Assembly (NCBI GenBank): GCA_026391215.1
Contig: JAPLDX010000108.1
Span: 1-44,647 of the forward strand
Source of the DNA: Bacteroidia bacterium
Lineage (GTDB): Bacteria > Bacteroidota > Bacteroidia > Bacteroidales > VadinHA17
Direction of reading: 5' to 3'
DNA length: 44,647 bases
Below the pieces are notes generated by a model that ran no database searches, was not told where the DNA came from, and was given only the letters and a program-made list of their open reading frames with translations. This document shows positions 12,025-32,060 of the stretch, one piece after another. The position numbers and the translations under genes are program-made. Numbering within the stretch: position 1 is the first letter of the stretch; every line of letters starts with the position of its first letter.

Positions 12025-12708
12025 TTATAGGGTTAGTCGGTGTAGTGCAAGGTTTCTTAAATAATTGACTGCCCCCTGAGGATCAGGTGAATAAAAGTCA
12101 GCGCCTATCTTCTCACAATATTCCTGTGTGACAGGAGCGCCGCCAACCAGAATTTTTAAACTAGGATAATTTGTTTTTAAATCAATCACAGTTTTTTTCA
12201 TGTTTTCCATTGTTGTTGTAAGTAAAGCTGATAAACCAACAATAGAACCAGGATTTTCATCGATTGCTCTAATGAATTTCTCAGTTCCTGCATCCACACC
12301 AAGGTCAATTACCTCCCATCCACCACCTTCAACCATCATTGCGACAAGGTTCTTCCCAATATCATGTAAGTCTCCAGCTACTGTTCCGATAATAAATTTC
12401 CCTTTCCTTTTTGTTTCACCTGATTGAAAATAAGGCCTGATATGGACCATCGCTCCATGCATGGCTTTTGCTGACATTAACATCTGAGGAACAAATATCT
12501 CATTCCTGCTGAACTTATTACCCACAATAGTCATTGCAGGGATCAATGCATTTTCAAGAATCTCAGTCGGTTTAATCCCATTTTCAAGAGCTTTTTTTGT
12601 CAGTTCATTTGCTCCATCCTGATCCTTCAAATTCGGTGGATAAGGACAGGCTTTGTCAATCTTCCCAAATTCAACACATTGTCGTAGTTTTTGTAGAATA
12701 TCATTCAT
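12025..12708 (-). CDS. Cobalamin-binding corrinoid protein (MtaC/MttC-like; cap plus B12-binding domain)
   Basis: GTVAGDLHDIGKNLV (DxHxxG), SALLTTT, VGGAP; N-terminal cap EIFVPQMLMSAKAM. Confidence 0.92.
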   Translation of the reverse strand: MNDILQKLRQCVEFGKIDKACPYPPNLKDQDGANELTKKALENGIKPTEILENALIPAMTIVGNKFSRNEIFVPQMLMSAKAMHGAMVHIRPYFQSGETKRKGKFIIGTVAGDLHDIGKNLVAMMVEGGGWEVIDLGVDAGTEKFIRAIDENPGSIVGLSALLTTTMENMKKTVIDLKTNYPSLKILVGGAPVTQEYCEKIGADFYSPDPQGAVNYLRNLALHRLTL

Positions 12709-12789
12709 AATTAAACTATTAATTAAAAAAATTAATCCTCAAGTCCTGCAAAATAGTAACCTCCTTAATCACTTTCTTCATACTTGCTT

Positions 12790-12821
12790 TATATTATATC
12801 TCCAAATCAAATGAATCTCAT
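12790..12821 (-). promoter_or_regulatory. Putative ECF-sigma promoter upstream of the corrinoid protein gene
   Basis: ATGAGATTCATTTGATTTGGAGATATAATATA; one of five copies with identical spacing. Confidence 0.7.
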
Positions 12822-13333
12822 AGGGAAAGTATAATTCTTTTTAGTGCATCTTGATCTTTTCTAAGGGACATAATCCAGAAGTGTACATATCACACTGTTT
12901 AAACATATTATCCGAAATGTGATCAATATATCCGTCTTATTCAGATTCTCCAGCTCTTTTTTCAGATAAAAGAATACTCATACTTTTGGTATCGTATACT
13001 ATTTGAATGTTTCTATATTCAGGTGAACCTTATTTCCAGATCTTTGTAAACTACACATTATCAGATTAATGGAAGAAGGATTTCCTTCCTGGCATACGTG
13101 CACCCAAACAAAATAAGTCCTCGCTCCCGCAGACTTATCATCTGAGTATTTAGCTTTTCACTATATAACTTTTTTCACACCACTATTTATATAATACCTT
13201 AAAAATTCTGTTCTGTATTATAGAAAATTAAACAAAAAAAGTTGGCATAATAAACACATCAATAATTGTAAGATTAAATGTTTATCATTTAACATTATTT
13301 AAAACAAGATTTTTAAACTGTTGTATTAAAGGG

Positions 13334-13341
13334 TATATTTG
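13334..13341 (+). promoter_or_regulatory. Housekeeping -7 promoter element for the ECF sigma gene
   Basis: TATATTTG, 25 nt upstream of the TTG start. Confidence 0.6.
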
Positions 13342-13366
13342 TATCACACTGATAAAAATAACTTTT

Positions 13367-13951
13367 TTGAAATCGATTCCCGACGATATTGAATTAGTTG
13401 AGAGACTGCAAAAAGGCGATGTTGAAGCATTTGACCTGATATATGAAAAATATTCAAGGAAACTCTATGCTTTTGGATTAAAATACCTCAGGTCAGCTGC
13501 AGAGACCGAAGAACTGGTCCAGTCGGTTTTTCTAAAGATATGGGAAAACTACAAAAATCTAAAAAAAGAATCATCTTTCAAATCATACCTTTTTACTATA
13601 GCATACAACGATATTTGTAAACTTTTTCGAAAGAGAAATTATCTGCAAAAATTTATCAGTGATACCCTGTACGAAAATTCTCAATCCTCTTCTGAAACAG
13701 AAGACGGGATCGACTATCAGTTTGTTCTTGAACGTGTGCAACAAATCATTGAAAAACTCCCTGAAAAGCAAAGAATCATCTTCATGAAAAGCCGACAGGA
13801 GGGTAAGTCATCCAAAGAGATAGCTGAAGAAATTGGACTTTCACCTGGAACCATTGATAATTATATATCAGAATCCCTTAAATTTATCCGTTACCGGTTG
13901 CGTAATGAAAACTTGTCAGTACTTCTGCTGTTTTCCTTGTTTTTCCTTTAA
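13367..13951 (+). CDS. ECF RNA polymerase sigma-70 factor (Bacteroidota PUL type)
   Basis: GDVEAFDLIY, ELVQSVFLKIW, FKSYLFTIAYN, LPEKQRIIF...EIAEEIG; hydrophobic C-terminal tail; adjacent to fecR. Confidence 0.93.
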   Translation: MKSIPDDIELVERLQKGDVEAFDLIYEKYSRKLYAFGLKYLRSAAETEELVQSVFLKIWENYKNLKKESSFKSYLFTIAYNDICKLFRKRNYLQKFISDTLYENSQSSSETEDGIDYQFVLERVQQIIEKLPEKQRIIFMKSRQEGKSSKEIAEEIGLSPGTIDNYISESLKFIRYRLRNENLSVLLLFSLFFL

Positions 13952-14091
13952 ATCAATAGAATCATTTCCCTTCTTAATACATCGCTGTCTGGAATATTTT
14001 TAATGTGCTTATAGACAGTGTATTATAAGCTAGTTGCGATAATACCGTCAAAGAAAAGGAATCAGCCTGAAAAGAAAAGTACATATTCCTT

Positions 14092-14123
14092 ATGAGATTC
14101 ATTATACTTGATGGTATAATATA
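14092..14123 (+). promoter_or_regulatory. Putative ECF-sigma promoter upstream of the candidate sRNA
   Basis: ATGAGATTCATTATACTTGATGGTATAATATA. Confidence 0.65.
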
Positions 14124-14124
14124 A

Positions 14125-14305
14125 ACCAACGTGAAAAACGTAATTATTAGAGGTAACTAATTATAAAGGATAAATTAATTCGGAATTCAAAACACGATTT
14201 TAATAGTTGGGTTAGTTTAGTTAGTTTAGGAGGTGTCTATGCATGCTGACAGGTACTTGTAGTTTTTTAAATAGTTCTATTTCTGCATTACCTGTCAGCT
14301 TTTTT
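14125..14305 (+). ncRNA. Candidate ECF-dependent small RNA (about 180 nt)
   Basis: Promoter motif, then an ORF-less tract containing TAGTTGGGTTAGTTTAGTTAGTTTAGG, then a terminator hairpin. Ends are approximate. Confidence 0.5.
14245..14305 (+). terminator. Intrinsic terminator-like hairpin
   Basis: GCTGACAGGTA (14245-14255) pairs with TACCTGTCAGC (14289-14299), followed by T6; extra pairing is possible inside the loop. Confidence 0.7.
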
Positions 14306-14505
14306 GTTGTGTAATATCACTTATCAACAAAAATAGTAAAGTAGTATTGTTAATTCTTCTCTGTAACTTTATATTCAAAATCCAAAAGGCCAATAAATCA
14401 ATAACCAACAATTATCTAGAATAGATTATGAACTGAGTATCGTATTCACAATATGTTAATTTAACAGAAGAAATTGATTAGATTGTAGAAAAATGCCATT
14501 TTCAG

Positions 14506-14537
14506 ATGAGATTTACCTTGTTTACGGGTATTATATA
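14506..14537 (+). promoter_or_regulatory. Putative ECF-sigma promoter upstream of fecR-susC-susD
   Basis: ATGAGATTTACCTTGTTTACGGGTATTATATA. Confidence 0.7.
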
Positions 14538-14581
14538 AATAAACTGAACGGGGAAACTGCTTTCCTCTGGTACTAAATTAA

Positions 14582-15628
14582 ATGACAATGCTGAAACAAG
14601 AAGAAATAGATAAGATAGAACGATATATTAATGGACTGTCGGACAATAAGGAAAAGACCGTTGTCGAGTCTTTATTCTCAAACGGGGGAAATAATAGTCT
14701 GTTACGTCATCACCTGGAAGAAGACTGGGATTCAATGCAACAGGGATCCGTTACAACTGATGTTGATCTCAACCACCTCCTTGATCATGTTCACCATATA
14801 ATCAGGAAAAACGAGACGTTAAAAAGGCAGAGACCTCTTCAAAAATTTATACGAGTCTACATGAAGACTGCCGCCATTCTGCTTTTACCCCTACTAATTA
14901 CAGGAGGACTGGTTTATAGTTACCTGGATTATCATAGGAAAACATTTACTGACAGGCAGGTCCTGTCCACCATTTATGCCCCTATGGGCGCACGCGTCTC
15001 CTTCAATTTGCCTGATGGAACTACCGGAATGCTTAACAGCGGTTCACATCTGACCTATACCATCCCTTTTGCAATAAACCGCCAGGTTAAACTTGAAGGG
15101 GAAGCATGGTTTGAAGTGAACCACAATGCAGATCATCCATTTGAAATAGGTACCGGAAATTCGACTGTGAAAGTGCTGGGTACAAGTTTCAATATAAGTG
15201 CCTATCCGGCAGAAAATTATATTGAGGTAGTACTTCAGGATGGCAAAGTGGAATTCCAGGATAATGAAAGCAAAGAAAAAGTTACGATGCTCCCATCGGA
15301 AAGGTTGGTATTTCAGGCCGGGAATATCAGCAAGTCAGTTACTGATCCGGAAAAGTATCATTCATGGACAGAAGGCAAGCTTGTTTTTAGAGGTGATCCC
15401 ATGTCTGAAGTTGCCCGCCGTATTGAACGGTGGTATAATGTAAAGATCAAATTGGACAACCAGGAGCTTGAAAATTATTCTTTCCGTGCAACATTCGAGG
15501 ACGACACACTCGAGGATGTACTACGGTTCTTAAGTATGACTTCTCCTATAAAATATAAGATCGCTCCACGCGAGCTAATGGTTGACGGAACTTATGAAAA
15601 AGAAGTAGTTACTATTTATCTGAAATAA
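14582..15628 (+). CDS. FecR-family anti-sigma factor
   Basis: Single TM; LPDGT..LNSGS, LEGEAWFEV, VKVLGTSFN, SWTEGKLVF, ERWYNV motifs. Confidence 0.93.
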   Translation: MTMLKQEEIDKIERYINGLSDNKEKTVVESLFSNGGNNSLLRHHLEEDWDSMQQGSVTTDVDLNHLLDHVHHIIRKNETLKRQRPLQKFIRVYMKTAAILLLPLLITGGLVYSYLDYHRKTFTDRQVLSTIYAPMGARVSFNLPDGTTGMLNSGSHLTYTIPFAINRQVKLEGEAWFEVNHNADHPFEIGTGNSTVKVLGTSFNISAYPAENYIEVVLQDGKVEFQDNESKEKVTMLPSERLVFQAGNISKSVTDPEKYHSWTEGKLVFRGDPMSEVARRIERWYNVKIKLDNQELENYSFRATFEDDTLEDVLRFLSMTSPIKYKIAPRELMVDGTYEKEVVTIYLK

Positions 15629-15690
15629 CGATTTTTTAAACTCTAAAATCTAAAAGCTATGAAAACAACCAAAGGGCCTTAAAAAACGAC

Positions 15691-15720
15691 AAAAAAAGGA
15701 AACCGCGTCAACGATTTCCC
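15691..15720 (-). terminator. Antisense-oriented terminator-like hairpin between fecR and susC
   Basis: AAAAAAA-GGAAACCG-CGTCAA-CGATTTCC; the U-run follows the stem only on the minus strand. Confidence 0.55.
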
Positions 15721-15767
15721 TAAAAAACATCATTCTGATATTTTTTAACTTAAAACACTACAAATCT

Positions 15768-18700
15768 ATGAAAAAAAACAAACCTTTTAGGGAATTGTTT
15801 TATTGTTCTCTGAAAAAAACTCTAAAAATTATGCGTAATGCTTTAATTCTACTATTTATAGGAGTCCTGCAAGCACACGCAATTGACACCTATTCACAGA
15901 AGACGAGGCTTTCCTTAGATTTTTCAGATACAGAACTAACTAAAGTTCTCGATAAAATTGAAGTGGAAAGTGAATTCTTCTTTCTTTACAATGAAAAACT
16001 GCTCGACATTGACCGTAAAGTCAGTATCACTGAAAACGATCAATTAATTAATGTGATACTAGATGATCTTTTTACTGGTACTGATGTAAGGTATACAATA
16101 ATTGACCAAAAAATCATTCTTGCTCCTGAATATTTAACGGAAAAATCTGAGATACAACAACGCTCAATTTCCGGAACGGTTGTGGACTCAAAAGGAGAAC
16201 CACTTCCAGGAGTAACAGTTCGGGTAAAGGGTACTTCAATTGGCACACAAACCGATATTGATGGGAAGTTTAAACTTTCTAACTTATCGGAAAGTTCTAT
16301 TCTAATGTTTTCATTTGTAGGTATGCAGACACAAGAGATTGAAATTACTGGTAAAGAACTTGTTAATGTTACTTTAATTGGAGAAGATGTTGGATTGGAT
16401 GAGGTCGTAGTAATTGGATATGGTACAGTCAAAAAGCAAAATATTACAGGTACAATTTCTCAAATAAAGGCAGATGCATTGGAAAACCGGGCTCTTGCAT
16501 CCTTAGGAGAGGGTTTTGCTGGCAAGATGGCTGGGGTACTTGCACAGCAAACTACGGGTAAGCCTGGATCAGAGTTATTTATTAGAATCAGGGGAACAAG
16601 TACCCTAAATGCCGGAACTGCTCCACTTTATGTTATTGATGGTGTTCCGGCAGCAGATATACAAGATATCAATCCATCTGATATTAAGTCAGTCGAAGTA
16701 TTGAAAGATGCAGCTTCTGCCGCAATCTATGGTGCCCGTGGGGGAAATGGCGTTGTATTGGTCACTACAAAGCAAGGAATTAAAGGAAAGCCAACCTTTG
16801 ATCTTGATGTGTCCTATGGATTACAAAGAGTAGACAAGAAGGTGCCAGTGTTTAACAGAAATGAGTATATCGCATATTTATCATGGGCAAGGAATGTAAA
16901 TTACATTCGTTCGGGAGGAAGTATGAATGATCCTATGGGCTCTCGCCCCATTGGTTACCAAATTCCAAATGAATGGTTGGATCCAGAATCAATGCCAGAT
17001 ACAGATTGGCAAGATGCAATATATAGAATTGCCCCAATGGCAGATTATCAATTATCTGCGTCAGGAGGTGGAGATATAGGATCTTTTATGATATCAGGTT
17101 CTTATATGAATCAATATGGTATTATGGAATGTACCGGCTATAAAAGGACCACTTTTCGCGTGAATACAACTTTAAATGTGGGGCAACATCTGAAACTGGG
17201 AATGAATATTTCCCCGTCCTATTCAATTTCAAATAACCCGGACAGCGAAGGAAAAGAAACTGTATCTCACCATGCAATTCAAATGCCAGCAATTGTTCCG
17301 TTAAATTCAATGACCGAAGAGTTGGGATACACTGCCGGAGTTAGCTTGCTGCCCAATCCTTTAATACGACTGCAGACAGTTAAGCAGGAAACGAGATACA
17401 ATAAATTACAAACCAACGTCTGGGGAGAATTAGAAATAACAAAGTCATTGTCATTCAGGTCTCAATACGGATACAATACCAGTGAATCTAAATCTACATA
17501 TTTTAGACCTTCAAATGTAAATCTAGGTAATGCTACAGGTGGTAGTTCTGCTGTAATTGATTATTACATTTGGTCACTTCAAAATACGATTACATATGCC
17601 CCAAAGATAAGTTCATTATTTGACATGAGTCTTTTGTTGGGACAGAGTATTGAAGGATCCAAAAATTATTATGTTGCTGCAGGTAAATCAGGATACCCTA
17701 ACGACCTGATTTACACCATGAATGTTGCCTCTACAGCAACTAATGCTAATTCATCGGAATCAGAGAACAGTATGTTATCTTATTTTGGCCGGTTGAACTT
17801 TAACATGAAAGATAAATATTTGTTAACAATAAATGGTCGTTATGACGCTTCATCCAGATTTGGGCCAGATACAAGATGGGGATGGTTTCCTTCTGCTTCT
17901 TTGGGTTGGAAAATTAACAAGGAAGAATTTATGAAAAACATTCCTTGGCTGGACCTGTTAAAAATCCGTCTTTCTATCGGGAAAGCCGGCAATAACAGTA
18001 TTGGAGATTATGAACCTATTGCGTTATTGAAATTATCCAATTATTCTCTTAACGGTAGCGTTGTAAATGGTCTGGCTCCTTCAACTCTCGGTAATCCGGA
18101 TTTGGGATGGGAAACAAGATTGTCAAGAAGCGTTGGACTTGATTTCGGGGCTTTCAAAAATCGTATACAGGCCAACCTCGATTATTATAATGACCTTACT
18201 ACAGACATGCTATTTAGCGTTAATGTCCCTTATATGTCAGGGTATGGTTCAGTAAGAGAAAATATTGGTAAAATCCAAAACCGTGGTTTGGAATTTGAGC
18301 TGACCACATCCAACATTGAAAGTCCATTTAAATGGACAAGTTCATTTAATATTTCCAGTAACATTAACAAAATAAAAGCGTTAGGTCTTGATGATGCGCC
18401 GATTATCACTAGCATGAATTCATATATTTGTTTTATCCAAAAAGTAGGCGAAGCAGTAGGTAGTTTTTATATGTATAAGACCGATGGGTTATTGTTAGAA
18501 GATGATTTTGACGAAACTGGTAAAGCAATCGTACCTATTGCCACGGGACAGGAAATAGGGAATATAAAGATTGTTGATACTAATAATGATGGTGTGATCG
18601 ATGCAAACGATCTGACGATATGTGGGAAGAATCAGCCTGATTTTTTGTGGGGAATCACCAATAACTTTTCCTACAAAAACTTCAGTTTGAGTGCTTTCTT

Positions 18701-19151
18701 TCAAGGCGCACAGGGTGGGAAAGTATTTATGCTTGGATTGCGACAAATCGGATATTTAAAAAAGTATTTAAGAAGCTATAAACAAATTCAGCCAAACGGA
18801 GAAAATCCGATCCCGGATTACTTAGGTGTAGATATGTCATGGGATGGGGAGACGGAAGGTGGTGTTGGAGCCAATCCAAGGTATAGTGACAGATGGCTAG
18901 ATGATGCGAGCTACACCAGACTTAAAAACATTACTATAGGTTATACCCTCCCGGAAAATTTATCCAGACGCATTGGAATTCAATCTGCCAGAATCTATGT
19001 CATGGGAGATAATGTTTTTACCTGGAGCAAATATCTGTTTGCGTCACCAGAAACAAACATGTACGGGAACCAAACAACACAAATGGGAGTTGATTATGGA
19101 ACTTATCCTATTTCAAGAAGATACAGTTTGGGTATTAATTTAACTTTTTAA
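15768..19151 (+). CDS. susC: SusC/RagA TonB-dependent transporter with N-terminal STN signalling domain (transducer)
   Basis: STN region, CarboxypepD-like domain, plug motif LKDAASAAIYGARGGNGVVLVTTK, C-terminal GINLTF. Confidence 0.96.
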   Translation: MKKNKPFRELFYCSLKKTLKIMRNALILLFIGVLQAHAIDTYSQKTRLSLDFSDTELTKVLDKIEVESEFFFLYNEKLLDIDRKVSITENDQLINVILDDLFTGTDVRYTIIDQKIILAPEYLTEKSEIQQRSISGTVVDSKGEPLPGVTVRVKGTSIGTQTDIDGKFKLSNLSESSILMFSFVGMQTQEIEITGKELVNVTLIGEDVGLDEVVVIGYGTVKKQNITGTISQIKADALENRALASLGEGFAGKMAGVLAQQTTGKPGSELFIRIRGTSTLNAGTAPLYVIDGVPAADIQDINPSDIKSVEVLKDAASAAIYGARGGNGVVLVTTKQGIKGKPTFDLDVSYGLQRVDKKVPVFNRNEYIAYLSWARNVNYIRSGGSMNDPMGSRPIGYQIPNEWLDPESMPDTDWQDAIYRIAPMADYQLSASGGGDIGSFMISGSYMNQYGIMECTGYKRTTFRVNTTLNVGQHLKLGMNISPSYSISNNPDSEGKETVSHHAIQMPAIVPLNSMTEELGYTAGVSLLPNPLIRLQTVKQETRYNKLQTNVWGELEITKSLSFRSQYGYNTSESKSTYFRPSNVNLGNATGGSSAVIDYYIWSLQNTITYAPKISSLFDMSLLLGQSIEGSKNYYVAAGKSGYPNDLIYTMNVASTATNANSSESENSMLSYFGRLNFNMKDKYLLTINGRYDASSRFGPDTRWGWFPSASLGWKINKEEFMKNIPWLDLLKIRLSIGKAGNNSIGDYEPIALLKLSNYSLNGSVVNGLAPSTLGNPDLGWETRLSRSVGLDFGAFKNRIQANLDYYNDLTTDMLFSVNVPYMSGYGSVRENIGKIQNRGLEFELTTSNIESPFKWTSSFNISSNINKIKALGLDDAPIITSMNSYICFIQKVGEAVGSFYMYKTDGLLLEDDFDETGKAIVPIATGQEIGNIKIVDTNNDGVIDANDLTICGKNQPDFLWGITNNFSYKNFSLSAFFQGAQGGKVFMLGLRQIGYLKKYLRSYKQIQPNGENPIPDYLGVDMSWDGETEGGVGANPRYSDRWLDDASYTRLKNITIGYTLPENLSRRIGIQSARIYVMGDNVFTWSKYLFASPETNMYGNQTTQMGVDYGTYPISRRYSLGINLTF

Positions 19152-19161
19152 ATGTTGGAAT

Positions 19162-20643
19162 ATGAAAAACAAGAAAATTTTAGCAATTATATTAGTCATT
19201 GCTGCTGCAATAACATTTTCATGTGAAGATTTTTTAAGCTTAAATCCCATTTCAAGTTACAATGCAGGAAGTTTCTACAAAACTCAGAAAGACTTTGAAA
19301 TGGCAGTCAATGGGATGTACAATGAATTTCAGGCTATGCACGCAGTTGTTGGAACTGGTAACATAGTACTTAATCTGGAATCTCGCTCCGATAATTGCAC
19401 ATTACAAACTGGTTATGATCCTGGTATCTTGCATCAATTCATTAACAATGCATCGACCGGGTCGACAAAAGGCTTTTGGGGAAGCTTTTATACTATTGTT
19501 CAACAAAGTAATGAGATACTTGGTAAGATAGATGCCGGAATCTTTGCTGATGAGACCAGGCGATCAAACTTAAAGGGTGAAGCATACTTCTTCCGCGGAT
19601 TAGCTTACTTTCAGCTGGGTTATCTGTTTGGCGGTGTCCCTTTGATTGATCATTCTATGAAAGTGGATGAGATTAAACAGATTGCCCGAAGTACACAAGC
19701 TGAGACATTTTCCTTTGCGGAAGCTGACCTGGTTCAGGCAATACTATTACTTCCTGATTCCTGGGTAGCAAAAGAATTAGGGAAAGCGACTAAATACTCT
19801 GCTCAAGGCATACTTGCACGGTTATATTTATTCCAAAAGAAGTATTCAGATGCGAAACCTCTGCTACAGAGCATTATTAATTCAGGAAAATATACACTAG
19901 CAACTAATTTTGTAGATTGTTTTTTGGATAAGTACGATAATAGCACTGAGCATGTATTCCAGGTTCAATGTGTTACAGGCTCTTTAGGTGAGGGGAATGG
20001 TTTTGTCGCTATGGAAGCACCTCTAGAGATTCGATCTACTGAATTTCCGAAAGGAGGATCTGCATACTATAATAAAGCCTCTTCAGATTTGTATAAATCT
20101 TATGAAACCGGGGACCTGCGCCGTAATATATCTCTTCAGAAGGGTTGGAAGAACGCAGCAGGTCAGACAGATACTATTACTATTTTTTTCGTAAAATATG
20201 CTCACGGAACGATACCTGCCTTAACGAATGATTATGCGGTTAACTTCCCTATATTACGATACACAGATGTTAAACTGATGTATGCAGAGGTATTAAATGA
20301 AGAAAATTATGATCCTGCCGGAGAAGCTTTTTCAATACTTAATGTTGTAAGGGCACGTGCAGGATTAAAACCACTTACATCAATCGAGGTTCCAACACAG
20401 GAGGCATTCAGAAATGCAATGTTGCATGAAAGGAGAGCTGAATTTGCATGTGAATACTTACGATGGTATGATCTTTTACGAACAGGTAAGGCTGTCGGTG
20501 TAATGAATGCTTTTTTTGCCCAGCCATCGGAAGGCAGCAGTAAATATAAAATGGAAGAATACATGTCTATTTTTCCAATACCGGAATATGAACTTTTATT
20601 AATTACTGATCCAAAAATCTTATGGCAAAATCCGGGATATTAA
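19162..20643 (+). CDS. susD: SusD/RagB glycan-binding lipoprotein
   Basis: Lipobox TFSC; GEAYFFRG, LRYTDVKLMYAE, ERRAEFACE..RWYDLLR, QNPGY. Confidence 0.95.
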   Translation: MKNKKILAIILVIAAAITFSCEDFLSLNPISSYNAGSFYKTQKDFEMAVNGMYNEFQAMHAVVGTGNIVLNLESRSDNCTLQTGYDPGILHQFINNASTGSTKGFWGSFYTIVQQSNEILGKIDAGIFADETRRSNLKGEAYFFRGLAYFQLGYLFGGVPLIDHSMKVDEIKQIARSTQAETFSFAEADLVQAILLLPDSWVAKELGKATKYSAQGILARLYLFQKKYSDAKPLLQSIINSGKYTLATNFVDCFLDKYDNSTEHVFQVQCVTGSLGEGNGFVAMEAPLEIRSTEFPKGGSAYYNKASSDLYKSYETGDLRRNISLQKGWKNAAGQTDTITIFFVKYAHGTIPALTNDYAVNFPILRYTDVKLMYAEVLNEENYDPAGEAFSILNVVRARAGLKPLTSIEVPTQEAFRNAMLHERRAEFACEYLRWYDLLRTGKAVGVMNAFFAQPSEGSSKYKMEEYMSIFPIPEYELLLITDPKILWQNPGY

Positions 20644-20666
20644 TATAGTTAATTGATTAATTACTT

Positions 20667-20708
20667 GAAGAAGCTCAAACCTGTATTGAAATTGGCTAGA
20701 GCTTCTTC
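20667..20708 (+). terminator. Stem-loop after susD (terminator or mRNA stabiliser)
   Basis: GAAGAAGCTC / GAGCTTCTTC 10-bp perfect inverted repeat; no long U-run. Confidence 0.5.
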
Positions 20709-20765
20709 CTTAAAAAATCAATATTTTTATCGTATTTGTCTGCCGAATCCTAAAGTAATTTTAAA

Positions 20766-24691: not shown

Positions 24692-24789
24692 AACTATAAT
24701 AAAACATTTATGGATACAATACAAGTATTCAAAACAAATAAAAGCTGCTATAATTCTAAATTACTATTGAATTATCGATAAGTGAATCT

Positions 24790-26295
24790 ATGAAAAATAA
24801 TTGTTCTATCCTTTGGATGGTCAGGAGGTTAGTTGTTCTGATTTTATTATTGCTAGTTTTTTTCTCTCCAAGAATTGCATCTGCTCAGAATTCATGGTTA
24901 ATGCTGAATGGTATTGAAATACCAAAGAACTTCAGATCAATGCGAAGTTCCAGTGCTGCTCCCAATTTGGAAGGTTCAGACGCACGTCCTATTCCGGCCG
25001 GCAAGACGCTGGTTCTAGCTAATCTTACGGGGCCTGGACGTATCACGCATATCTGGTTCACATTAAGTCCGCACATTAATCTCTATGGAAAGAAATTTGT
25101 TTTGAAAATATTCTGGGATGGAGAACAAAATCCCAGTGTTGAGGCTCCTCTTAATGACTTTTTCTGCGAGGGACATGGAATCGATATGAATGTTCAAAGC
25201 TTTCCTTTCAGCGTATCATCGGTTGGGAGAGGACGTAACTGTTATTTTCCTATGCCATTCCGTAAGTCGGCAAGGATTGAGATCACCAATGAAAGTGATG
25301 AGCCACTACGATGGATCTGGTGGAATATTGACTGGCAGAAGCTTAACAGCTTGTCAAAAAATGTTTACTACTTCCATTCAAAATATCGACAGGAGTTCCC
25401 ATGTAAATCAGGGGGTGGTGATTATCTTATCCTGAAAGCCGAAGGGGAAGGACATTATGTAGGCTGCAATTTATCAGTACGGACTCTTAAACCTCTTTGG
25501 TGGGGTGAAGGCGATGACAAATTTTACATCGATGGCGAAACAGAACCCAGCCTGCAAGGTACAGGTGCCGAAGATTACTTTTGTCAGGCATTTGGTATAA
25601 GAGAATATGCAGGGCTGTTCTATGGATGCCCTTTTAATGAAAGTCCAGCGGTTTATCCTCGGGTTACATTATACCGGTTTCACATTCCTGATCCGGTACC
25701 TTTTTCCAAATCTCTGATGGTGACTATTGAGCATATGGGTGGAAAATACATTCCGAAGAAAGGTTATGAAGAACGTGCAGATGATTATAGTAGCGTTGCG
25801 TACTGGTATCAGAAAGAACCTCACATTGAATTTACCACAATGCCACCTCTTAAAGATCGACTTTATTCCGGGAATGTAGTTTTTATTGAAGCCGAATCTC
25901 TTGGTTATACATATGAGGCGATAGGTGGATGTCCGGGAACACGGGAATTGATTCATGCAGGCAATGACAAATTCCTTTATTTTGCTCCACTCGATGATAA
26001 AGCTTTCTTAACAGTCAAGTTCTCAGTCCGGGAAGCTTCAATTTATGATACCTGGCTGCATATGGTAAAATCATGGGATTACGGTACATACCAGGTTTTT
26101 ATAGATGGCAAATCAATAAGTAATCCAATAGATAATTATACTGAAAATGCTACACAATCAGCATCCCTAAACCTTGGTCAACTGTCTATTGAAGCAGGAG
26201 AACATACACTTCAATTTCAATGTACAGGGAAAAATCCTTTATCAAAGGGATACTCATTGGGATTAGATCGGATTGAGCTGATGCCAGTACATTGA
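24790..26295 (+). CDS. DUF2961 / GH172 glycoside hydrolase with C-terminal CBM-like beta-sandwich
   Basis: GPGRITHIW, WWGEGDDKFYIDGE, GTGAEDYF, SSVAYWYQ; C-terminal domain starting IEAES. Confidence 0.85.
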   Translation: MKNNCSILWMVRRLVVLILLLLVFFSPRIASAQNSWLMLNGIEIPKNFRSMRSSSAAPNLEGSDARPIPAGKTLVLANLTGPGRITHIWFTLSPHINLYGKKFVLKIFWDGEQNPSVEAPLNDFFCEGHGIDMNVQSFPFSVSSVGRGRNCYFPMPFRKSARIEITNESDEPLRWIWWNIDWQKLNSLSKNVYYFHSKYRQEFPCKSGGGDYLILKAEGEGHYVGCNLSVRTLKPLWWGEGDDKFYIDGETEPSLQGTGAEDYFCQAFGIREYAGLFYGCPFNESPAVYPRVTLYRFHIPDPVPFSKSLMVTIEHMGGKYIPKKGYEERADDYSSVAYWYQKEPHIEFTTMPPLKDRLYSGNVVFIEAESLGYTYEAIGGCPGTRELIHAGNDKFLYFAPLDDKAFLTVKFSVREASIYDTWLHMVKSWDYGTYQVFIDGKSISNPIDNYTENATQSASLNLGQLSIEAGEHTLQFQCTGKNPLSKGYSLGLDRIELMPVH

Positions 26296-26332
26296 AACCT
26301 ACTAATCTAATAATGTATCAAGGAATTAAAAA

Positions 26333-28453
26333 ATGAGGAAAAAAGTTGCTTATATTTTACGAACCATTGTTTGTTTTATGGCATTATTTTTAGTGCTGTT
26401 GAGATCAAATGCTCAGGAAATTAATGGTCAAAATACATTGGTCAATCATCAGGAAGAAAGAAACAAACAATATGATTGGCAGACTATTTGCACAGTGGAG
26501 GATGTTTGCAAAGTATACCCACAATTAATGATTACCCTTTTAGATGCTTTGAACATGAACTATGAGGGCCTCCGGGAAGTAAAAATGGCTCATGAAAATG
26601 GAGATATTACTCTTGCATGCACCCTGTTGCTCGACTATTACAAAAACAGCAACAAAATGCCTTTTGTCTGGCAAGTCCCGGTATTCTCAAAAAACATTAA
26701 CACCGTTGCTGACTCAAATTTGCAAAATATCTTCACTTTCTATAATAAGACTTACACAGTACCCCGAGATTCGAATGGTCATCTTAAATGGAATTACCAT
26801 GGTCCTGAGGATGATATTGAATGGGCATGGGCACTTAATCGCCATCATCATTTAGGGATATTGCTTGATGCTTATTTGCAGTCAGGTAATCCTGACTATT
26901 CCAGAGCAATAGATAGCAATATAAAAGACTGGATAATAAGCAGTTTACCTTATCCGGGGAAAAAGAGTGGCACAGAATTATGGAGGGGACTTGAAGTAAG
27001 CTTTCGTATAAAAGTATGGGCCAGAATTTTTTATACACTAATGAATTGCGATGATCTTTGCCCAGCCACCCGACTGCTGATTTTGAGCAGTATTTCCGAT
27101 CATGCTCATTATTCGCGTAATTTTCATAACCAGGGTAACTGGCTGACTATGGAAATGTCAGGACTCGCAATGGCTGCCATTTCATGGCCGGAATTTAATG
27201 AATCACCCTCATGGATTGCCTACTCTAAGGAAACCATAACAAAGAGCATGATGGGACAGGTTTATCCTGATGGTGTTCAAACCGAGTTGACTTCTGGTTA
27301 TCACCTGACTGCACTCGTTAACTTTAATCTTTTTAGGGACATTTGTCTGCAGTCAAATGAGTCATTGCCTGAAATATTCGAAGAGCAGATTGAGAAAATG
27401 TGGAATTACCTGGCTTACACGATGCGACCAGATGGGTATAGTCTTCTTAATAATGATTCAGATCTCAGAGACAACCGTGAAAAAGTCATAAATGCTTCAA
27501 CTGTTTATAAGAGAAAAGACTGGCTTTATCTTGCAACAAACGGAAAGGAAGGACAGGAACCATATGGTGAGCCATCAGTTTTTTTCCCATATGCTGGTCA
27601 TCTGATTATGCGAAGTGGTTATGAACCGGAGGCTCAGTATGGCTTTTTTGACATAGGACCATGGGGTACCGGTCATCAGCATAATGACAAGCTTAATATT
27701 TCCATATCCGCATTTGGCCAAGAATTTCTAGTCGATGGGGGCAGATTTGCTTACACGGGAGAAGTAGCTAAAAAATTCAGGAGTTATGCACGCGGAAGTT
27801 CTGGTCATAATGTAATACTAATAGACGGAAATGGACAGGCACCAGGACCAAATCTTGCTAATCAACCTCTTAATGGAGGAAATTTTACAATATCGGAAAA
27901 ATTCGACTATGCATGGGGATCGTTTAATAAGTTTAACGATACGGAAGGAATATGTGATCATACGCGTGCACTATTATATGTCAGAGATAAGTTCTGGATT
28001 GTTGTAGATCGTATAAGCACAGATCGTCCCCGGAAAATAGAAACATTATGGCACTGGCACCCCGATTGTACAGTCGAACCTGATGGAAAAAACTCAGTTT
28101 CTGGAAAAAACAGTAAGGGGAACCTGGAGATTATCCCGGTTGGTTTTCGACGACATAATCTGTCCTTTGTAAAAGGGCAGGAGAAACCTGTTATCCAAGG
28201 ATGGTACAGCAAGCAATATAATAGTGCAGTACCAAATGTCACAAGTATCTATTCTGATGAAATAAAAGGTAATACTACATTTGTTTGGATATTGTATCCC
28301 TCATCAGGTAAGTTACAACCCATAAAAGCAAAATTGGTAACTGAGAATGAAACTGATGTGAATATCAGAGTTACAAATGCAAAAGGTGACAGATGGGAAA
28401 TTACGATACCATTTTCAAACAGTAATAAAGTTGTTTTAAGATCAAATCATTAA
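26333..28453 (+). CDS. Heparinase II/III-like polysaccharide lyase
   Basis: EWAWALNRH, GNWLTME, DGVQTELTSGYH, GHQHNDKL, HNVILIDG motifs; signal peptide. Confidence 0.85.
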   Translation: MRKKVAYILRTIVCFMALFLVLLRSNAQEINGQNTLVNHQEERNKQYDWQTICTVEDVCKVYPQLMITLLDALNMNYEGLREVKMAHENGDITLACTLLLDYYKNSNKMPFVWQVPVFSKNINTVADSNLQNIFTFYNKTYTVPRDSNGHLKWNYHGPEDDIEWAWALNRHHHLGILLDAYLQSGNPDYSRAIDSNIKDWIISSLPYPGKKSGTELWRGLEVSFRIKVWARIFYTLMNCDDLCPATRLLILSSISDHAHYSRNFHNQGNWLTMEMSGLAMAAISWPEFNESPSWIAYSKETITKSMMGQVYPDGVQTELTSGYHLTALVNFNLFRDICLQSNESLPEIFEEQIEKMWNYLAYTMRPDGYSLLNNDSDLRDNREKVINASTVYKRKDWLYLATNGKEGQEPYGEPSVFFPYAGHLIMRSGYEPEAQYGFFDIGPWGTGHQHNDKLNISISAFGQEFLVDGGRFAYTGEVAKKFRSYARGSSGHNVILIDGNGQAPGPNLANQPLNGGNFTISEKFDYAWGSFNKFNDTEGICDHTRALLYVRDKFWIVVDRISTDRPRKIETLWHWHPDCTVEPDGKNSVSGKNSKGNLEIIPVGFRRHNLSFVKGQEKPVIQGWYSKQYNSAVPNVTSIYSDEIKGNTTFVWILYPSSGKLQPIKAKLVTENETDVNIRVTNAKGDRWEITIPFSNSNKVVLRSNH

Positions 28454-28517
28454 TATGCCATTGATGAAATTAGTGTGGCATTGTAATCTTGAGGATACAA
28501 GGAAATAAATCACATAT

Positions 28518-29405
28518 TTATTTCTCCATTGCATATTGTTTTTTGTATTCTTCCCAGATTTGCAGCGAACGTGTTAAAGTTTCAACAGCATCGCCGGAAA
28601 GATGATAACATTGAAGGCCTATGGGCCCGCGATAACCATTGTCTCTCAGTGACTTCACAAAATGATAAGTATCAAATGATCCCTGACCTAATGGTTGTAT
28701 CAACCGGTCCCATCCCATGCTTTTGGTGTCCCCATTATCAGCACCGCATATATTTACCGCAAACAAATATGGAGCAAATTCTTTAATTTTTTCGTCTATT
28801 CCTTCAGATCCTTCGACCTTAAGTAAATGGCAAAGATTCATTGCAGAACCGTAGTTTTTCCTGTCAACCATTTTCGCAAGTTTCACACTATGTGCTACAG
28901 TTTCACAGTAAGTTGACAGATGTGGATAAATGCACAACTTAATACCATAAGGAAGTGAATAATCAGAAAGATCACGTAATACTGCGACGATTAATTTATC
29001 ACCTGTCTCTTTATTATTCTTATAAGTATTACTTTGAATATAGAAATAAATTATACTTCCATTTGAAGATGATTTAATCATCGTTTTAATCTCATTAGCC
29101 GAGGTATCATCAAGTTTCCCATCTGCATTAAAATTTAGTGCGACATAATTAACAGGCATCTTTAGACCTTCTTCATCAAGTGCTTTTTTAAGTTCAAAAA
29201 AATCTTTATATCCGAAACCTTCTAAACCGTCATACCCAATGGTTTTTAATAATTTTGCCTTTTCAGATGCAGTTTGTGGTGCATTCTTGAACCATTTTAA
29301 AGTGTTTTGAGCATAAAAAATATTATTCAGCTTTTTTTTAGGGTACGCAATACACGAAACCAGAACTAAACTGAAAATTACGATTACAAACATTTTCATT
29401 TTCAT
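28518..29405 (-). CDS. Sugar phosphate isomerase/epimerase (AP-endonuclease 2 TIM barrel) lipoprotein
   Basis: GYDGLE, IYPH, NLCHLLK, PLGQGSFD, GYRGPIGLQCY; lipobox LVSC. Confidence 0.78.
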   Translation of the reverse strand: MKMKMFVIVIFSLVLVSCIAYPKKKLNNIFYAQNTLKWFKNAPQTASEKAKLLKTIGYDGLEGFGYKDFFELKKALDEEGLKMPVNYVALNFNADGKLDDTSANEIKTMIKSSSNGSIIYFYIQSNTYKNNKETGDKLIVAVLRDLSDYSLPYGIKLCIYPHLSTYCETVAHSVKLAKMVDRKNYGSAMNLCHLLKVEGSEGIDEKIKEFAPYLFAVNICGADNGDTKSMGWDRLIQPLGQGSFDTYHFVKSLRDNGYRGPIGLQCYHLSGDAVETLTRSLQIWEEYKKQYAMEK

Positions 29406-29416
29406 ATTTTGTTGAT

Positions 29417-30679
29417 CTAGGAATTAATTTGTTTCAACATATCTATCATAGCTACTAAGTTTTCAACAGGAACGTTGGCTTGAACATTATGCACTGTGTT
29501 AAAAACAAAGCCCCCATCCTTCCCCAGAATCTCACATTGCTCTTTCACTTGTTTCTTTACATCTTCAGGTTTTCCGAAGGCAAGTACTTTTTGGGTATCG
29601 ACACCTCCACCCCAAAATACCAGCCGCTCGTTATATTTTTGTTTTAACTGAAGGGAATCCATTCCTTCAGCGTTGATCTGGACAGGATTCAATATATCAA
29701 ATCCCGCTCTAATGAGGTTTTCAATTAAAGGTTCAACCGCTCCGCAAGAGTGCTTGAAAGTTTTCCACCGTGTATTTTTATGAATCCAGTTATTTACCTT
29801 ACGATAAAAAGGTGCATATATTTCCTCAAAATCTTCTTTAGAACAAAACTGGGAGTTTTGTGTACCAAAATCATTGCCACAAATATAAACAGCATCTATT
29901 AGATCCTTAGAATCTCCTAATATATTGATGATTTTATGCAGATTGCATATGGCTATATCTGTCTGTTTGTCAAATACATCTATTATATAATCTTTCCTCA
30001 TGAGAATAGACATATACCATTCTGAAACATCTCGTATTCCTTTAGGATTTATAAGTCCTGTACCGGGTACCAGCCCAATATCTCCGATTGCTGTTCCCCC
30101 AAAATTGACAATTATTCCCTTCTTAGTTTTAGAAGCCTTTAACACCTGTTGGTCCCAATATGTTAGATCTTCTTCAGTTATATAACTAAATTCTTCCAGA
30201 TTATCTCTGGAATCTAATGCTGTTTCATTAATAGGTTGCTGACGTATTATAGCATCGAAGAAATATCCGCTTTCTGGCATACGACCGCTCGGTGGAACTT
30301 CTGTATTGCCCTGGGGATATAGCAAAATGCTCTTGTTTTTATCATATGTTGTACAAAATTTCCCGGGTACTAATACCGTTTGATTCCAAAAGGTTTTAAA
30401 CTCTTTCCAGTTTTCATTTGCAAAACCAAACATATTAATACGGGGACTTATCCCTATTACATCGATACCTAAAACTTCCTGTAAATCAGGTTCTATTTCA
30501 CCCAACATTTGAAAAGGCTCGATAACTTTAACAGGATTCATCGACAAACCATAATACTTGCGCAAATTTTCGACCGCAAGAACATGTATTCCAGTTGTTG
30601 GCGTACTACCAAAATCTACTACAATTCTGTCAGCTTGTTTATGCTCCAAAACTGTTTTTACTCTTTGCCTTGAATTCAT
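29417..30679 (-). CDS. URO-D/MtaA-family (cobalamin-dependent methyltransferase-like) protein
   Basis: MNSRQRV...DRIVVDFG, DFGTQ, FKHSCG, GFDILNPVQ, FWGGGVDTQ, GGFVFNTVHNVQANVPVEN. ATG 30679 preferred over TTG 30691. Confidence 0.85.
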   Translation of the reverse strand: MNSRQRVKTVLEHKQADRIVVDFGSTPTTGIHVLAVENLRKYYGLSMNPVKVIEPFQMLGEIEPDLQEVLGIDVIGISPRINMFGFANENWKEFKTFWNQTVLVPGKFCTTYDKNKSILLYPQGNTEVPPSGRMPESGYFFDAIIRQQPINETALDSRDNLEEFSYITEEDLTYWDQQVLKASKTKKGIIVNFGGTAIGDIGLVPGTGLINPKGIRDVSEWYMSILMRKDYIIDVFDKQTDIAICNLHKIINILGDSKDLIDAVYICGNDFGTQNSQFCSKEDFEEIYAPFYRKVNNWIHKNTRWKTFKHSCGAVEPLIENLIRAGFDILNPVQINAEGMDSLQLKQKYNERLVFWGGGVDTQKVLAFGKPEDVKKQVKEQCEILGKDGGFVFNTVHNVQANVPVENLVAMIDMLKQINS

Positions 30680-30716
30680 ATTATAAAACAACTTTATATA
30701 AACATGAAATAAGCAA

Positions 30717-32060
30717 TTAATTATCTGTTTTCTTTACGTTCCAGAGCTGTTCAATTTCTTCCAATGATTTTCCTTTTGTTTCCGGCAAATACATATAAGT
30801 AAATAGCCATTGAATAAGAGACATCAGAGCAAGGAACATAAAGGTAATAGCTCCACCAACCGACGCTAAAAAATATGGGAAAAACAGCACTATTAAAAAG
30901 TTGAATATCCATTGAGTAAATGAAGTAAATGCGACTGCCGAACCTCTGATTTTATTTGGATATATCTCTGCAACAAGAGTCCAGAAAACAGGACCAATGC
31001 AGGATGCAAAAAATGCACAAAAAAGCAAGATACAGACTAAAGTTATCATGTTATCCAGTTTGAAATAAAACGAACAGGCTAACATTATTAAAGTCAAAGT
31101 CATCCCCATTGAACCTATCAGATAGAGCAAGCGTCGCCCTGTTTTATCAATTAGCAATATTGCAATAAAAGTGAATAAACAATTAATAAGGCCGATAAAT
31201 GAAGTATTGAGTAGTGCATTCTTTATTCCAATCCCTGCTGTCATGAGAATTTTTGGGCCGTAGTCGATTATAGTATTAATCCCGCTAATCTGTACAAGAA
31301 CAGCTAAAAAGAATCCGACCAGGATCACTTTTCGCGAATTTGGTTTAAATAGCTGTCCAATAGTTACTGATTTCATATCCCCTTTTATAGAATCAGCGAT
31401 CTCTTTGATTTCGATCTCTGCCAAATCCTTGCCTCCTATTTTGGTAAGTATTTGAAATGATTTTTCTTTTTGTCCTGCCCTAAATAGCCATCGCGGGCTT
31501 TCAGGTATGAAAAATAGTCCAATGAAAAATAATAATGAAGGGACAATTCCGGTTGCAAACATCCATCGCCAACTATTATCGACATTGTGTAACCAATAAT
31601 TGATTATATATGAGACAATTATTCCTATCGTAATAGCGAGTTGATATATAGCTACCAGCATTCCCCTGTTTCTGGATGGGGCGACTTCTGCCACATACAA
31701 AGGACAGAGAACTGAAGCAGAACCAACTGATAATCCACCAAATAAACGTGCAGAAATGAACATGGCTGAGCTAATGGAAAGTGCCGTAGCTAAACTTGAA
31801 AGTGTAAAAAACAAGGCAACATATATTAGAACTTTCTTGCGACCGTATTTATCAGCTAAAATTCCAGATCCGAAAGCTCCGATAATTGCACCAACTAATA
31901 ATGAGCTTACTCCCCAACCCAATTGAAGTTCATTCCAATGAAAATATAATTGTATAAATGGTACTGCACCTGATATTATAGCAATGTCAAACCCGAACAT
32001 AAGGCCTCCCATTGTTGCTATAAAGCAAATAATGTATATATATGCGCCTTTATTTAACAT
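30717..32060 (-). CDS. MFS sugar porter (XylE/AraE/GalP family)
   Basis: GGLMFGFD, DKYGRKK, PESPRWL, PETKGKSLEEIE. Confidence 0.94.
   Translation of the reverse strand: MLNKGAYIYIICFIATMGGLMFGFDIAIISGAVPFIQLYFHWNELQLGWGVSSLLVGAIIGAFGSGILADKYGRKKVLIYVALFFTLSSLATALSISSAMFISARLFGGLSVGSASVLCPLYVAEVAPSRNRGMLVAIYQLAITIGIIVSYIINYWLHNVDNSWRWMFATGIVPSLLFFIGLFFIPESPRWLFRAGQKEKSFQILTKIGGKDLAEIEIKEIADSIKGDMKSVTIGQLFKPNSRKVILVGFFLAVLVQISGINTIIDYGPKILMTAGIGIKNALLNTSFIGLINCLFTFIAILLIDKTGRRLLYLIGSMGMTLTLIMLACSFYFKLDNMITLVCILLFCAFFASCIGPVFWTLVAEIYPNKIRGSAVAFTSFTQWIFNFLIVLFFPYFLASVGGAITFMFLALMSLIQWLFTYMYLPETKGKSLEEIEQLWNVKKTDN

Follow-up and report, generated by a model that had tools for sequence, protein, structure and literature searches.

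A candidate cobalamin-dependent methyl-transfer system for O-methylated sugars in a Bacteroidia polysaccharide utilization locus

A methyl ether on a sugar stands in the way of glycosidases and catabolic enzymes. So far a single bacterial route for demethylating such sugars has been described, and it is oxidative: a cytochrome P450 monooxygenase of marine Bacteroidota demethylates 6-O-methyl-D-galactose (Robb et al. 2018, PMC6292453), with formaldehyde as the product (PMC10033563). The introduction of PMC6292453 adds that sugars with methyl groups withstand degradation in the gut and build up in sea water. Here we analyse a 44,647-nucleotide stretch of DNA (the window) from a Bacteroidia bacterium of the VadinHA17 lineage (contig JAPLDX010000108.1, assembly GCA_026391215.1). 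A stand-alone corrinoid protein (CP) and a URO-D-like protein, which we call UROD-L, are encoded there in one polysaccharide utilization locus (PUL). An earlier note, made by a model from the letters of this DNA, had proposed that the pair demethylates O-methylated monomers anaerobically via methyl-cobalamin. We consider it likely that UROD-L is a corrinoid-dependent methyltransferase. For the full mechanism, the corrinoid-dependent demethylation of an imported neutral O-methylated sugar with UROD-L as first methyltransferase (MT I) and CP as carrier, we put the chances at a little better than even.

In its layout the proposed system follows those known for aryl methyl ethers and for methanol, which combine an MT I, a CP and a second methyltransferase (MT II). 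The aryl methyl ether O-demethylases of acetogens and Desulfitobacterium (OdmB or VdmB, CP, MT II and an activator) share with it a stand-alone CP with a DxHxxG motif, a URO-D-fold protein as substrate-specific partner and a pterin-binding methyl-CP:tetrahydrofolate (THF) methyltransferase. However, they act on phenyl methyl ethers, whereas the substrate proposed here is an alkyl (sugar) methyl ether. UROD-L also belongs to a separate family of about 420 residues with no significant sequence match to solved structures. Its genome has a MetH-type activation domain instead of a RACE/ASKHA activator, and the parts of the system are spread over three contigs, with one CP copy wired into the PUL.

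MtaB, which with the aid of zinc takes a methyl group off an aliphatic oxygen and passes it to Co(I), makes the MtaB-MtaC methanol system the nearest chemical precedent. Clusters of MtaB, CP and RACo occur in relatives that also hold UROD-L, but MtaB belongs to another Pfam family (PF12176, against PF01208 for UROD-L) and was not found in the genome studied here. MtaA, MtbA and CmuA (TIGR01463) and the Mlp clusters of Kountz and Balskus (PMC10418091) resemble the present system in the URO-D fold and in clustering with a CP and activators, and the H-x-C-G motif of the former lies in the same alignment columns as that of UROD-L. In contrast to MtaA, MtbA and CmuA, UROD-L is about 80 residues longer, has an unmatched N-terminal half, carries His for the second zinc Cys and scores far below the cut-offs of their models. 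In PMC10418091, the UroD-superfamily methyltransferases are shorter, MtaA-like proteins of sulfur or selenium metabolism, and terms for sugars and for Bacteroidota each have 0 occurrences. MetH has CP, pterin-binding and activation modules homologous to those encoded on contig C10 of this genome; the C10 modules, however, are separate polypeptides, their operon has no homocysteine domain, and the genome's MetH lies on contig C105. The P450 has the same proposed role, acting on a PUL-released methyl-ether monosaccharide, but the system considered here would need no O2 and would retain the methyl group in the form of methyl-THF.

New are the family to which the MT I belongs, the class of substrate proposed for it, the replacement of RACE by a MetH-type activation domain in this genome and the integration into PULs. 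Full-text searches of a limited literature set found no corrinoid-dependent sugar demethylase. On the broadest claim, that UROD-L founds a family of demethylases that depend on cobalamin but not on O2 and act on aliphatic (carbohydrate) methyl ethers, we are evenly divided. If it is true, a very large uncharacterised family would gain a function, alkyl ethers would become a new substrate class for corrinoid methyltransferase chemistry, and glycan degradation would be tied to B12 demand and one-carbon (C1) metabolism, the methyl groups of sugars feeding the folate C1 pool. Anaerobes of sediments, soils and guts could then use methylated sugars thought recalcitrant, and an anaerobic B12-dependent route would explain the fate of these sugars in anoxic communities. 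Bacteroidota would plug the module into PULs either whole, as in genome G027, or through a duplicated CP under a PUL promoter, as in the window. The hypothesis is directly testable with two small soluble proteins, UROD-L and CP.

The corrinoid protein and the regulon of the locus

The CP gene (12025–12708, reverse strand) encodes 227 residues with the Pfam domains B12-binding_2 (68.5 bits) and B12-binding (90.1 bits). Its DxHxxG motif reads G-D113-L-H115-D-I-G118, and these residues are invariant in all 18 aligned CPs. The NCBIfam models MtgC, MtbC and pyl_corrinoid score 141–195 bits. The best match in the PDB is 1y80 (E 2.1e-48), others being 7xcn, a trimethylamine methyltransferase corrinoid protein, and 4jgi; we take 1y80 and 4jgi to be the Moorella and D. 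hafniense corrinoid proteins. As judged by these matches, the window CP is a methyl carrier of the methyltransferase type, not of the photoreceptor or mutase type.

The gene sits at the left edge of the PUL island, divergent from an ECF sigma factor gene across a 658-bp spacer, and the earlier note had described both the motif and this arrangement correctly. Stand-alone B12-binding regulators exist, and a CP divergent from a sigma gene could be one of them: a B12- or light-sensing regulator of the CarH/AerR kind that acts on the sigma system and carries no methyl group. We regard this as highly improbable. The CarH model gives 34.2 bits against a cut-off of 400, compared with the 141–195 bits of the methyltransferase CP models, and CarH chains in the PDB reach only E 1.7e-4 or worse, compared with 2.1e-48 for 1y80. 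Moreover, the protein is 76% identical to a CP encoded on C10, which heads an operon for a pterin-binding methyltransferase (MeTr) and MTHFR.

These two proteins are the stand-alone CPs of the genome. Because they share 76% of their residues, while identity to the CPs of 30 other genomes with UROD-L does not exceed 68%, we read the window CP as a recent duplicate of the C10 copy, apparently placed under the PUL's own promoter motif. A different origin, as the leftover of a decayed CP-MtaB-RACo cluster like that of locus L099, was rejected: neither the window nor the genome gave any tblastn trace of MtaB, RACo or AraC. The sigma, FecR and SusC proteins of L099 are only 27–39% identical to those of the window.

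A repeat search of the window revealed a family of promoter-like repeats of about 33–34 nucleotides upstream of four transcription units. One copy (12790–12822, reverse strand) lies 82 bp upstream of the CP start codon. The second (14091–14123, forward strand) precedes the genes for FecR, SusC, SusD and the glycoside hydrolases (GHs), the third (34782–34814, reverse strand) the DUF1080/3-dehydrogenase unit and possibly the genes for the MFS porter, UROD-L and a TIM-barrel protein, and the fourth (38075–38107, reverse strand) the GH78 gene. Aligned as transcribed, the four copies are invariant in 31 columns and have the core TATGAGA-N3-ATT-N11-TATAAT-R-TA, and a sigma-70 scan reads the copy at 34813–34785 as ATGAGA-17-TATAAT. 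When both strands were searched with up to 2 substitutions, there were exactly 4 matches in the 3.39-Mb genome, all inside the island, and 0 in three 1.5-Mb shuffled sequences, a result well outside what chance would give. The earlier note had reported the motif in front of CP, fecR-susCD and GH78; all three hold, and the DUF1080 unit joins them.

Judged by this motif, the CP gene and the PUL are regulated as one set, and the motif is presumably the target of the island's ECF sigma factor. The MFS–UROD-L–TIM unit has no copy directly in front of it. It trails the DUF1080 and 3-dehydrogenase genes by 365 bp; prediction placed no terminator-like site in between, and we infer that the two sets of genes are co-transcribed. 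Within this genome, the shared regulon motif is the only coupling of UROD-L to CP. The gap between the sigma and fecR genes measures 630 bp (13952–14581). From the motif to the annotated start of fecR, downstream of it, the distance is 459 bp, implying that the leader is long or that a small gene has gone unrecognised.

The UROD-L family and its relation to MtaA

UROD-L (29417–30679, reverse strand) has 420 residues. Its open frame reaches a TTG at 30691, but comparison with homologues and with the recorded 420-residue form P0004 places the real start at the ATG at 30679. The match to PF01208 (50 bits) covers residues 274–421 only, the last third of the protein, and profile positions 206–345 of 346. 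Five NCBIfam models hit at E ≤ 0.01, four for methylcobamide methyltransferases and one MetE-like, all far below cut-off, and no hemE model is among the five. HemE chains in the PDB match at E 0.07 or worse. The earlier note had named grouping with HemE as one outcome that would speak against its proposal; UROD-L does not group with HemE and, by these comparisons, is not one.

All 8000 candidates scored in the homologue search fell at E ≤ 0.001, and the family has more than 8000 recorded relatives. In a protein atlas search, the homologue P0097 brought up nothing beyond the URO-D clusters to which it belongs. Listed members are 371–478 residues long and 60–79% identical to UROD-L. A scan of species-representative genomes yielded 124 confirmed relatives, and the proteins of the best 80 loci are 50–64% identical; by record title they come from Bacteroidota, Chloroflexi, Verrucomicrobiota, Acidobacteriota, Actinomycetota, Planctomycetota, Lentisphaerae, Spirochaetes, Fibrobacteres, Latescibacterota and Bacillota. 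By these measures UROD-L is a member of a very large, tightly conserved and uncharacterised family. His314 and Cys316 (in K-H-S-C-G), His401-Asn402, Asp274, Asp332, Asn335 and Gln338 are invariant in it, and Cys385 is not conserved.

Profile alignment ties this family to MtaA. Compared by hhalign with 11 shorter URO-D proteins of these genomes, UROD-L aligns over residues 218–424 with 99.8% probability and E 8e-28. H314-S-C316-G aligns with H-I-C-G in the MtaA-like protein encoded on contig C119, and the Cys in the S-A-G-C-E of that protein lies opposite His401. MtaA itself (4ay7) takes the same register in a match that is not significant. The MtaA-like proteins of the aligned set carry H-x-C-G followed by G-C, which we take to be the MtaA zinc site. 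On this alignment, residues 218–424 of UROD-L are homologous to MtaA-like corrinoid methyltransferases and keep half of their zinc site, with His replacing the second Cys, and His314, Cys316 and His401 probably form a metal site. The earlier note had labelled the protein "URO-D/MtaA-type"; its scores with the MtaA/CmuA models stay far under their cut-offs.

A family tree built from 81 proteins (79 of the 93 URO-D cluster members, those of 395–480 residues, with the 14 shorter or longer ones omitted, plus the proteins of contig C133 and G027) resolves several clades. Because these differ in their neighbour sets, and CP adjacency occurs in more than one, the tree suggests several substrate specificities within one mechanism.

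Corrinoid partners in other genomes and on other contigs

For the neighbourhood study, open reading frames of at least 90 residues in the best 80 UROD-L loci, many of them only a few kb long, were clustered and re-scored against reference proteins. A CP gene directly follows UROD-L on the same strand in four of the 80 (L087, 0 bp; L076, 20 bp; L088, 78 bp; L074, 94 bp). With G027, where the CP gene is likewise less than 100 bp away, this makes five other genomes in all, from three phyla. In L079, L075 and L092 the distance is 1.5–4.2 kb, giving seven of the 80 loci in total. By record title, the taxa with adjacent or nearby CP genes are Actinomycetota, Tannerella/Tannerellaceae, Acidobacteriaceae, Terrimicrobiaceae and Chloroflexi. 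The gene order in L076 is UROD-L, CP, MetH-activation-like and MtaA-like; that in L074 is SDR, UROD-L, CP, MtaA-like, SusC and SusD; and L087 also holds a RACo activator (262.9 bits). In G027, one strand encodes FecR, UROD-L (417 residues), CP (211), a MetH-activation-like protein (221), an MtaA-like protein (335), SusC and SusD, by its gene content a complete methyltransferase module inside a PUL. A neighbourhood comparison of URO-D-like and corrinoid genes across PULs had been the earlier note's own suggestion, and it bears the proposed pairing out.

Co-occurrence points the same way. In a sample of 201 genomes of the class, UROD-L is present in 2 only, the genome studied here (G000) and G027. 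Among the matches listed, CP matches at E ≤ 1e-32 were likewise confined to these two, with 0 in the 199 others; every other listed match lies in a frame of 550–1500 residues, the size of MetH, and 27 further matches were weaker than those listed. The sample includes G171 and G090, whose only listed matches are in frames of 1224 and 1242 residues, again MetH-sized. Conversely, 30 further UROD-L genomes with no CP in the fetched flank were scored against the window CP, and at E ≤ 1e-32 all 30 encode a stand-alone CP at another site, for nearly all of them in a frame of 195–261 residues. These counts come from related genomes in groups picked by feature, are not independent, and are strong hints rather than statistics. 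In addition, sister-type URO-D domains are fused to a CP in P0138, P0139, P0141 and P0172; H-C-D replaces H-S-C in these proteins, and P0139 is 32% identical to UROD-L over 167 residues. Taken as comparative genomics, the B12 link of UROD-L is strongly supported.

These data also bear on a reading in which UROD-L is a cobalamin-independent enzyme of a 3-keto-glycoside route from periplasm to cytoplasm, for example a decarboxylase, isomerase or hydratase of an imported sugar derivative, and the window CP meets some other need for methyl transfer. Glycoside 3-dehydrogenase (19 of 80 loci) and DUF1080 (12) are indeed commoner neighbours of UROD-L than CP (7), the URO-D fold includes the cofactor-free HemE, and His401 aligns with a HemE His. 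Nevertheless, we hold this reading to be quite unlikely, given a stand-alone CP in 30 of 30 UROD-L genomes but in none of the 199 class-sample genomes lacking UROD-L at the same threshold, the immediate adjacency of the two genes in five genomes of three phyla, the invariance of MtaA's H-x-C-G in the family, the fusions of related URO-D domains to CPs, and the PUL motif in front of the CP gene.

If UROD-L is a corrinoid methyltransferase, the remaining parts would have to come from elsewhere in the genome, which is 98.9% complete. It contains four URO-D-family genes: the two UROD-L paralogues, in the window and on C133, the MtaA-like gene on C119, with 4ay7 as best PDB match of its product, and a Cys-less form on C38. 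Models for MtaB, MttB and RACo found no match in it, PF14574 being the one for the RACE/ASKHA (RamA-type) ATP-dependent reductive activator. Because MtaB, MttB and RACo were not found, proteins of the URO-D family are the only recognisable CP partners besides MeTr and the only candidates for the donor side.

The C10 operon comprises CP, a Pterin_bind protein, an MTHFR with a DUF5981 domain, a Met_synt_B12 activation domain, a GH3 and a CE15 glucuronyl esterase. The Pterin_bind protein (103 bits) matches 4o0q, presumably the O-demethylase MT II of D. hafniense, and the MeTr of the CO-dehydrogenase pathway at E 1e-37. The activation domain scores 36.6 bits to PF02965 and matches 1j6r in the PDB. 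The CP-MeTr-MTHFR-activation operon recurs in L095 and L096. By these assignments, the methyl acceptor side and the repair function exist in trans on C10. The earlier note, finding neither an activator nor an acceptor transferase in the window, had expected both in trans; a MeTr and an activation domain are there, the latter of MetH type and not of the RACE/ASKHA kind.

The GH3 and CE15 genes (C10:34166–37756) trail the operon on the same strand, and GH3 relatives lie near the CP operon in L096 and L102 as well. The sole homocysteine methyltransferase domain of the genome is that of MetH at C105:41234–43708, which is read in two frames, of 378 residues (homocysteine domain) and 836 residues (pterin and B12), with one TAA between them; the gene may be split, may be a pseudogene or may only look interrupted through a sequencing error. 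A role of the C10 activation domain in serving just this MetH was considered and rejected, the 836-residue frame having been judged long enough for an activation domain of its own. Rfam places the single cobalamin riboswitch of the genome on C73, away from all of these genes.

Two further kinds of CP cluster were seen in other genomes. Six Bacteroidales/Prolixibacteraceae-type metagenome-assembled genomes (L097, L099, L100, L101, L103, L104) hold a CP-MtaB-RACo cluster with a divergent AraC gene, for example L099:3710–8512. PF12176 matches MtaB with 525.7 bits and PF14574 matches RACo with 205.7 bits, and the cluster encodes a methanol:corrinoid methyltransferase system such as methanogens and acetogens have. 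L102, L105, L107, L110, L111 and L112 have a conserved cluster of CP, a URO-D::thioredoxin fusion (448–539 residues), CobW and a MetH-activation-like protein, in L110 (7041–11830) together with a homocysteine S-methyltransferase (PF02574). It looks like a split, methionine-synthase-like methyl-transfer system of unspecified donor.

The direction of transfer has to be weighed separately. Corrinoid methyl transfers are reversible in principle, MtaA-type enzymes move methyl groups from the corrinoid to an acceptor, and the C10 MeTr and MTHFR can supply methyl-THF, so that a methyl group might pass from methyl-THF via CP and UROD-L to an imported or nascent sugar or to another acceptor in a biosynthetic or modifying methylation. 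We think this very unlikely. The context is catabolic throughout, with SusC and SusD, GHs, a sugar importer, ROK kinases and substrate-responsive regulators of the AraC and ECF types, and biosynthetic O-methylation of sugars is normally SAM-dependent. Demethylation, with UROD-L as donor-side enzyme, is the direction we infer.

The sugar link and the layout of the island

The MFS transporter gene next to UROD-L (30717–32060, reverse strand) encodes a protein of the sugar-porter family: Sugar_tr gives 388 bits, TIGR00879 378 bits (cut-off 237.8) and the XylE-like model 366 bits. The UROD-L gene follows it by 25–37 bp and ends 11 bp before the gene for a xylose-isomerase-like TIM-barrel protein (28518–29405, reverse strand; AP_endonuc_2, 70 bits). 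The earlier note had described the three as a tight unit with a TIM-barrel epimerase. The spacing agrees with this, but the TIM-barrel protein begins with a lipoprotein signal, MKMKMFVIVIFSLVLVSC, that ends in the lipobox LVSC. Because of this signal it is probably periplasmic and not a cytoplasmic partner of UROD-L, and it fits better with a periplasmic route of the glycoside 3-dehydrogenase and DUF1080 proteins.

Sugar genes accompany UROD-L well beyond the window. Both paralogues of this genome adjoin sugar-porter MFS genes, the one on C133 being followed directly by the porter, then by a DUF5107-TPR protein and a GH2. In the 80 loci the commonest neighbour is a ROK sugar kinase (20 loci, often directly downstream), followed by glycoside 3-dehydrogenase (19), DUF1080 and AraC regulators (12 each), SDR (11), FAD oxidoreductases (10), MFS sugar porters, SIS-domain proteins and phosphotriesterase-like proteins (8 each), GH172 (7) and SusC (5). 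UROD-L is also recorded as fused to a GH3 (P0124, 1030 residues) and to a sugar-porter MFS protein (P0125, 840 residues), although both fusions may be gene-calling artefacts. An O-methyl sugar is a plausible substrate. The porter and the ROK kinases suit a neutral sugar (hexose, deoxyhexose or pentose) better than they suit a uronate. The methyl-uronates offered by the earlier note are less likely, because the porter, judged by its model scores, is of the neutral-sugar (XylE/GlcP-like) type. An O-methyl cyclitol is possible.

The UROD-L/CP pair could also be real and its donor not a sugar. Methanol released from methyl-esterified, pectin-like glycans, a methoxylated aromatic or a cyclitol such as pinitol might be used instead, while the neighbouring porter serves the ordinary sugars of the PUL. 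In relatives, the closest CP orthologues adjoin MtaB (525.7 bits to PF12176) and RACo, UROD-L shares a cluster with an MtaB-like gene in L075, L079 and L086, and a CE15 esterase trails the C10 operon. OdmB and VdmB, the known UroD-superfamily O-demethylases, act on aryl methyl ethers (PMC10418091). In the genome studied here, which has no MtaB, methanol would need another enzyme. A non-sugar donor is nevertheless unlikely in our view, as MtaB and UROD-L in one cluster are unlikely to be redundant, methanol needs no porter, UROD-L adjoins a sugar-porter gene both in the window and on C133, a ROK kinase accompanies it in a quarter of the loci (20 of 80), and the recorded fusions join it to a sugar porter and to a GH3.

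With an O-methylated sugar as the donor, the PUL would have recruited a cobalamin-dependent methyl-transfer branch that works as follows. The PUL glycosidases, together with the periplasmic 3-dehydrogenase, DUF1080 and TIM-barrel proteins, would free a neutral O-methylated monosaccharide, which the MFS porter would take up. UROD-L, as MT I, would activate the ether oxygen at the probable metal site His314/Cys316/His401 and hand the methyl group to Co(I) of CP. The MeTr-like enzyme of C10 would unload the resulting methyl-Co(III) protein onto THF, and the neighbouring MTHFR would connect methyl-THF to the C1 pool. CP oxidised to Co(II) would be repaired by the stand-alone MetH-type activation domain of the same operon, and the demethylated sugar would enter ordinary catabolism. 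It is speculation, by analogy with the BT2156-2160 pathway reportedly described by Nasseri in 2024 and Liou in 2020, that the 3-dehydrogenase, DUF1080 and TIM-barrel proteins detach methylated residues beyond the reach of ordinary glycosidases.

Several observations tell against this mechanism. Chemically, an alkoxide is a demanding leaving group, and the phenolates of the known O-demethylase substrates are better ones. UROD-L scores only 33 bits with the MtaA/CmuA model TIGR01463 (cut-off 235.4) and 38 bits with PRK06252 (cut-off 244); PDB searches with its sequence and with a 30-sequence profile gave no significant relative; its first ~217 residues match nothing that was tried; and the second zinc Cys of MtaA is not kept, the His aligned there being found in HemE too. 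Genomically, CP and UROD-L lie 16.7 kb apart in the window (about 17 kb in the earlier note), and 72 of the 80 loci, many of them short, have no CP inside the fetched flank. Because MtaB sits with UROD-L in the three clusters named above, a small C1 donor for UROD-L is possible. By record title, the family also occurs in Streptosporangiaceae and Acidobacteriaceae, which are largely aerobic lineages. Finally, a search of sequencing runs listed no RNA dataset for the organism; its matches were DNA contigs from freshwater-sediment and landfill metagenomes.

The locus itself is a low-GC island. Between 12.0 and 38.1 kb the GC content is 0.33–0.39, compared with 0.41–0.43 in the flanks, and the gene calls of the earlier note were found where it had placed them (open reading frames, Pfam, NCBIfam). 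With adjoining SusC-like and SusD-like genes, carbohydrate-active enzymes and a dedicated regulator, all recognised by Pfam, the island is a PUL controlled by an ECF sigma factor and an anti-sigma factor. On the forward strand, the sigma gene (13367–13951; Sigma70_r2, Sigma70_r4_2) is followed by genes for a FecR-type anti-sigma factor (14582–15628; FecR, FecR_C), a SusC-like TonB-dependent transporter (15768–19151), a SusD-like protein (19162–20643), a Glyco_hydro_88 protein (20766–21914), a GH116 (22136–24691), a DUF2961/GH172 protein (24790–26295) and a heparinase II/III-like protein (26333–28453). On the reverse strand, beyond the MFS–UROD-L–TIM unit, lie genes for a glycoside 3-dehydrogenase of the BT_2158 family (32426–33919; NF058561, 854.6 bits, cut-off 750), a DUF1080 or 3-keto-disaccharide hydrolase (33938–34690; PF06439, 147.5 bits) and a GH78 alpha-L-rhamnosidase with five Bac_rhamnosid domains (35169–37949). 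The heparinase-like, 3-dehydrogenase and DUF1080 genes were not listed in the earlier note. Its GH78, GH116 and GH172 are present; its GH105 is seen only as Glyco_hydro_88, a family within which Pfam cannot tell GH88 from GH105.

Three open reading frames to the left of the island, at 1632–3749 (705 residues), 5450–7186 (578) and 10469–11737 (422), belong to no Pfam family; the last, which is convergent with the CP gene, has no NCBIfam match either. Rfam found no family in the window. The island is flanked by two copies of an element of about 145 nucleotides (11811–11955 and 38183–38326), likewise without an Rfam match, which are 70–82% identical and in direct orientation. Further copies of this element lie at C124:4399–4548 and on contig C115.

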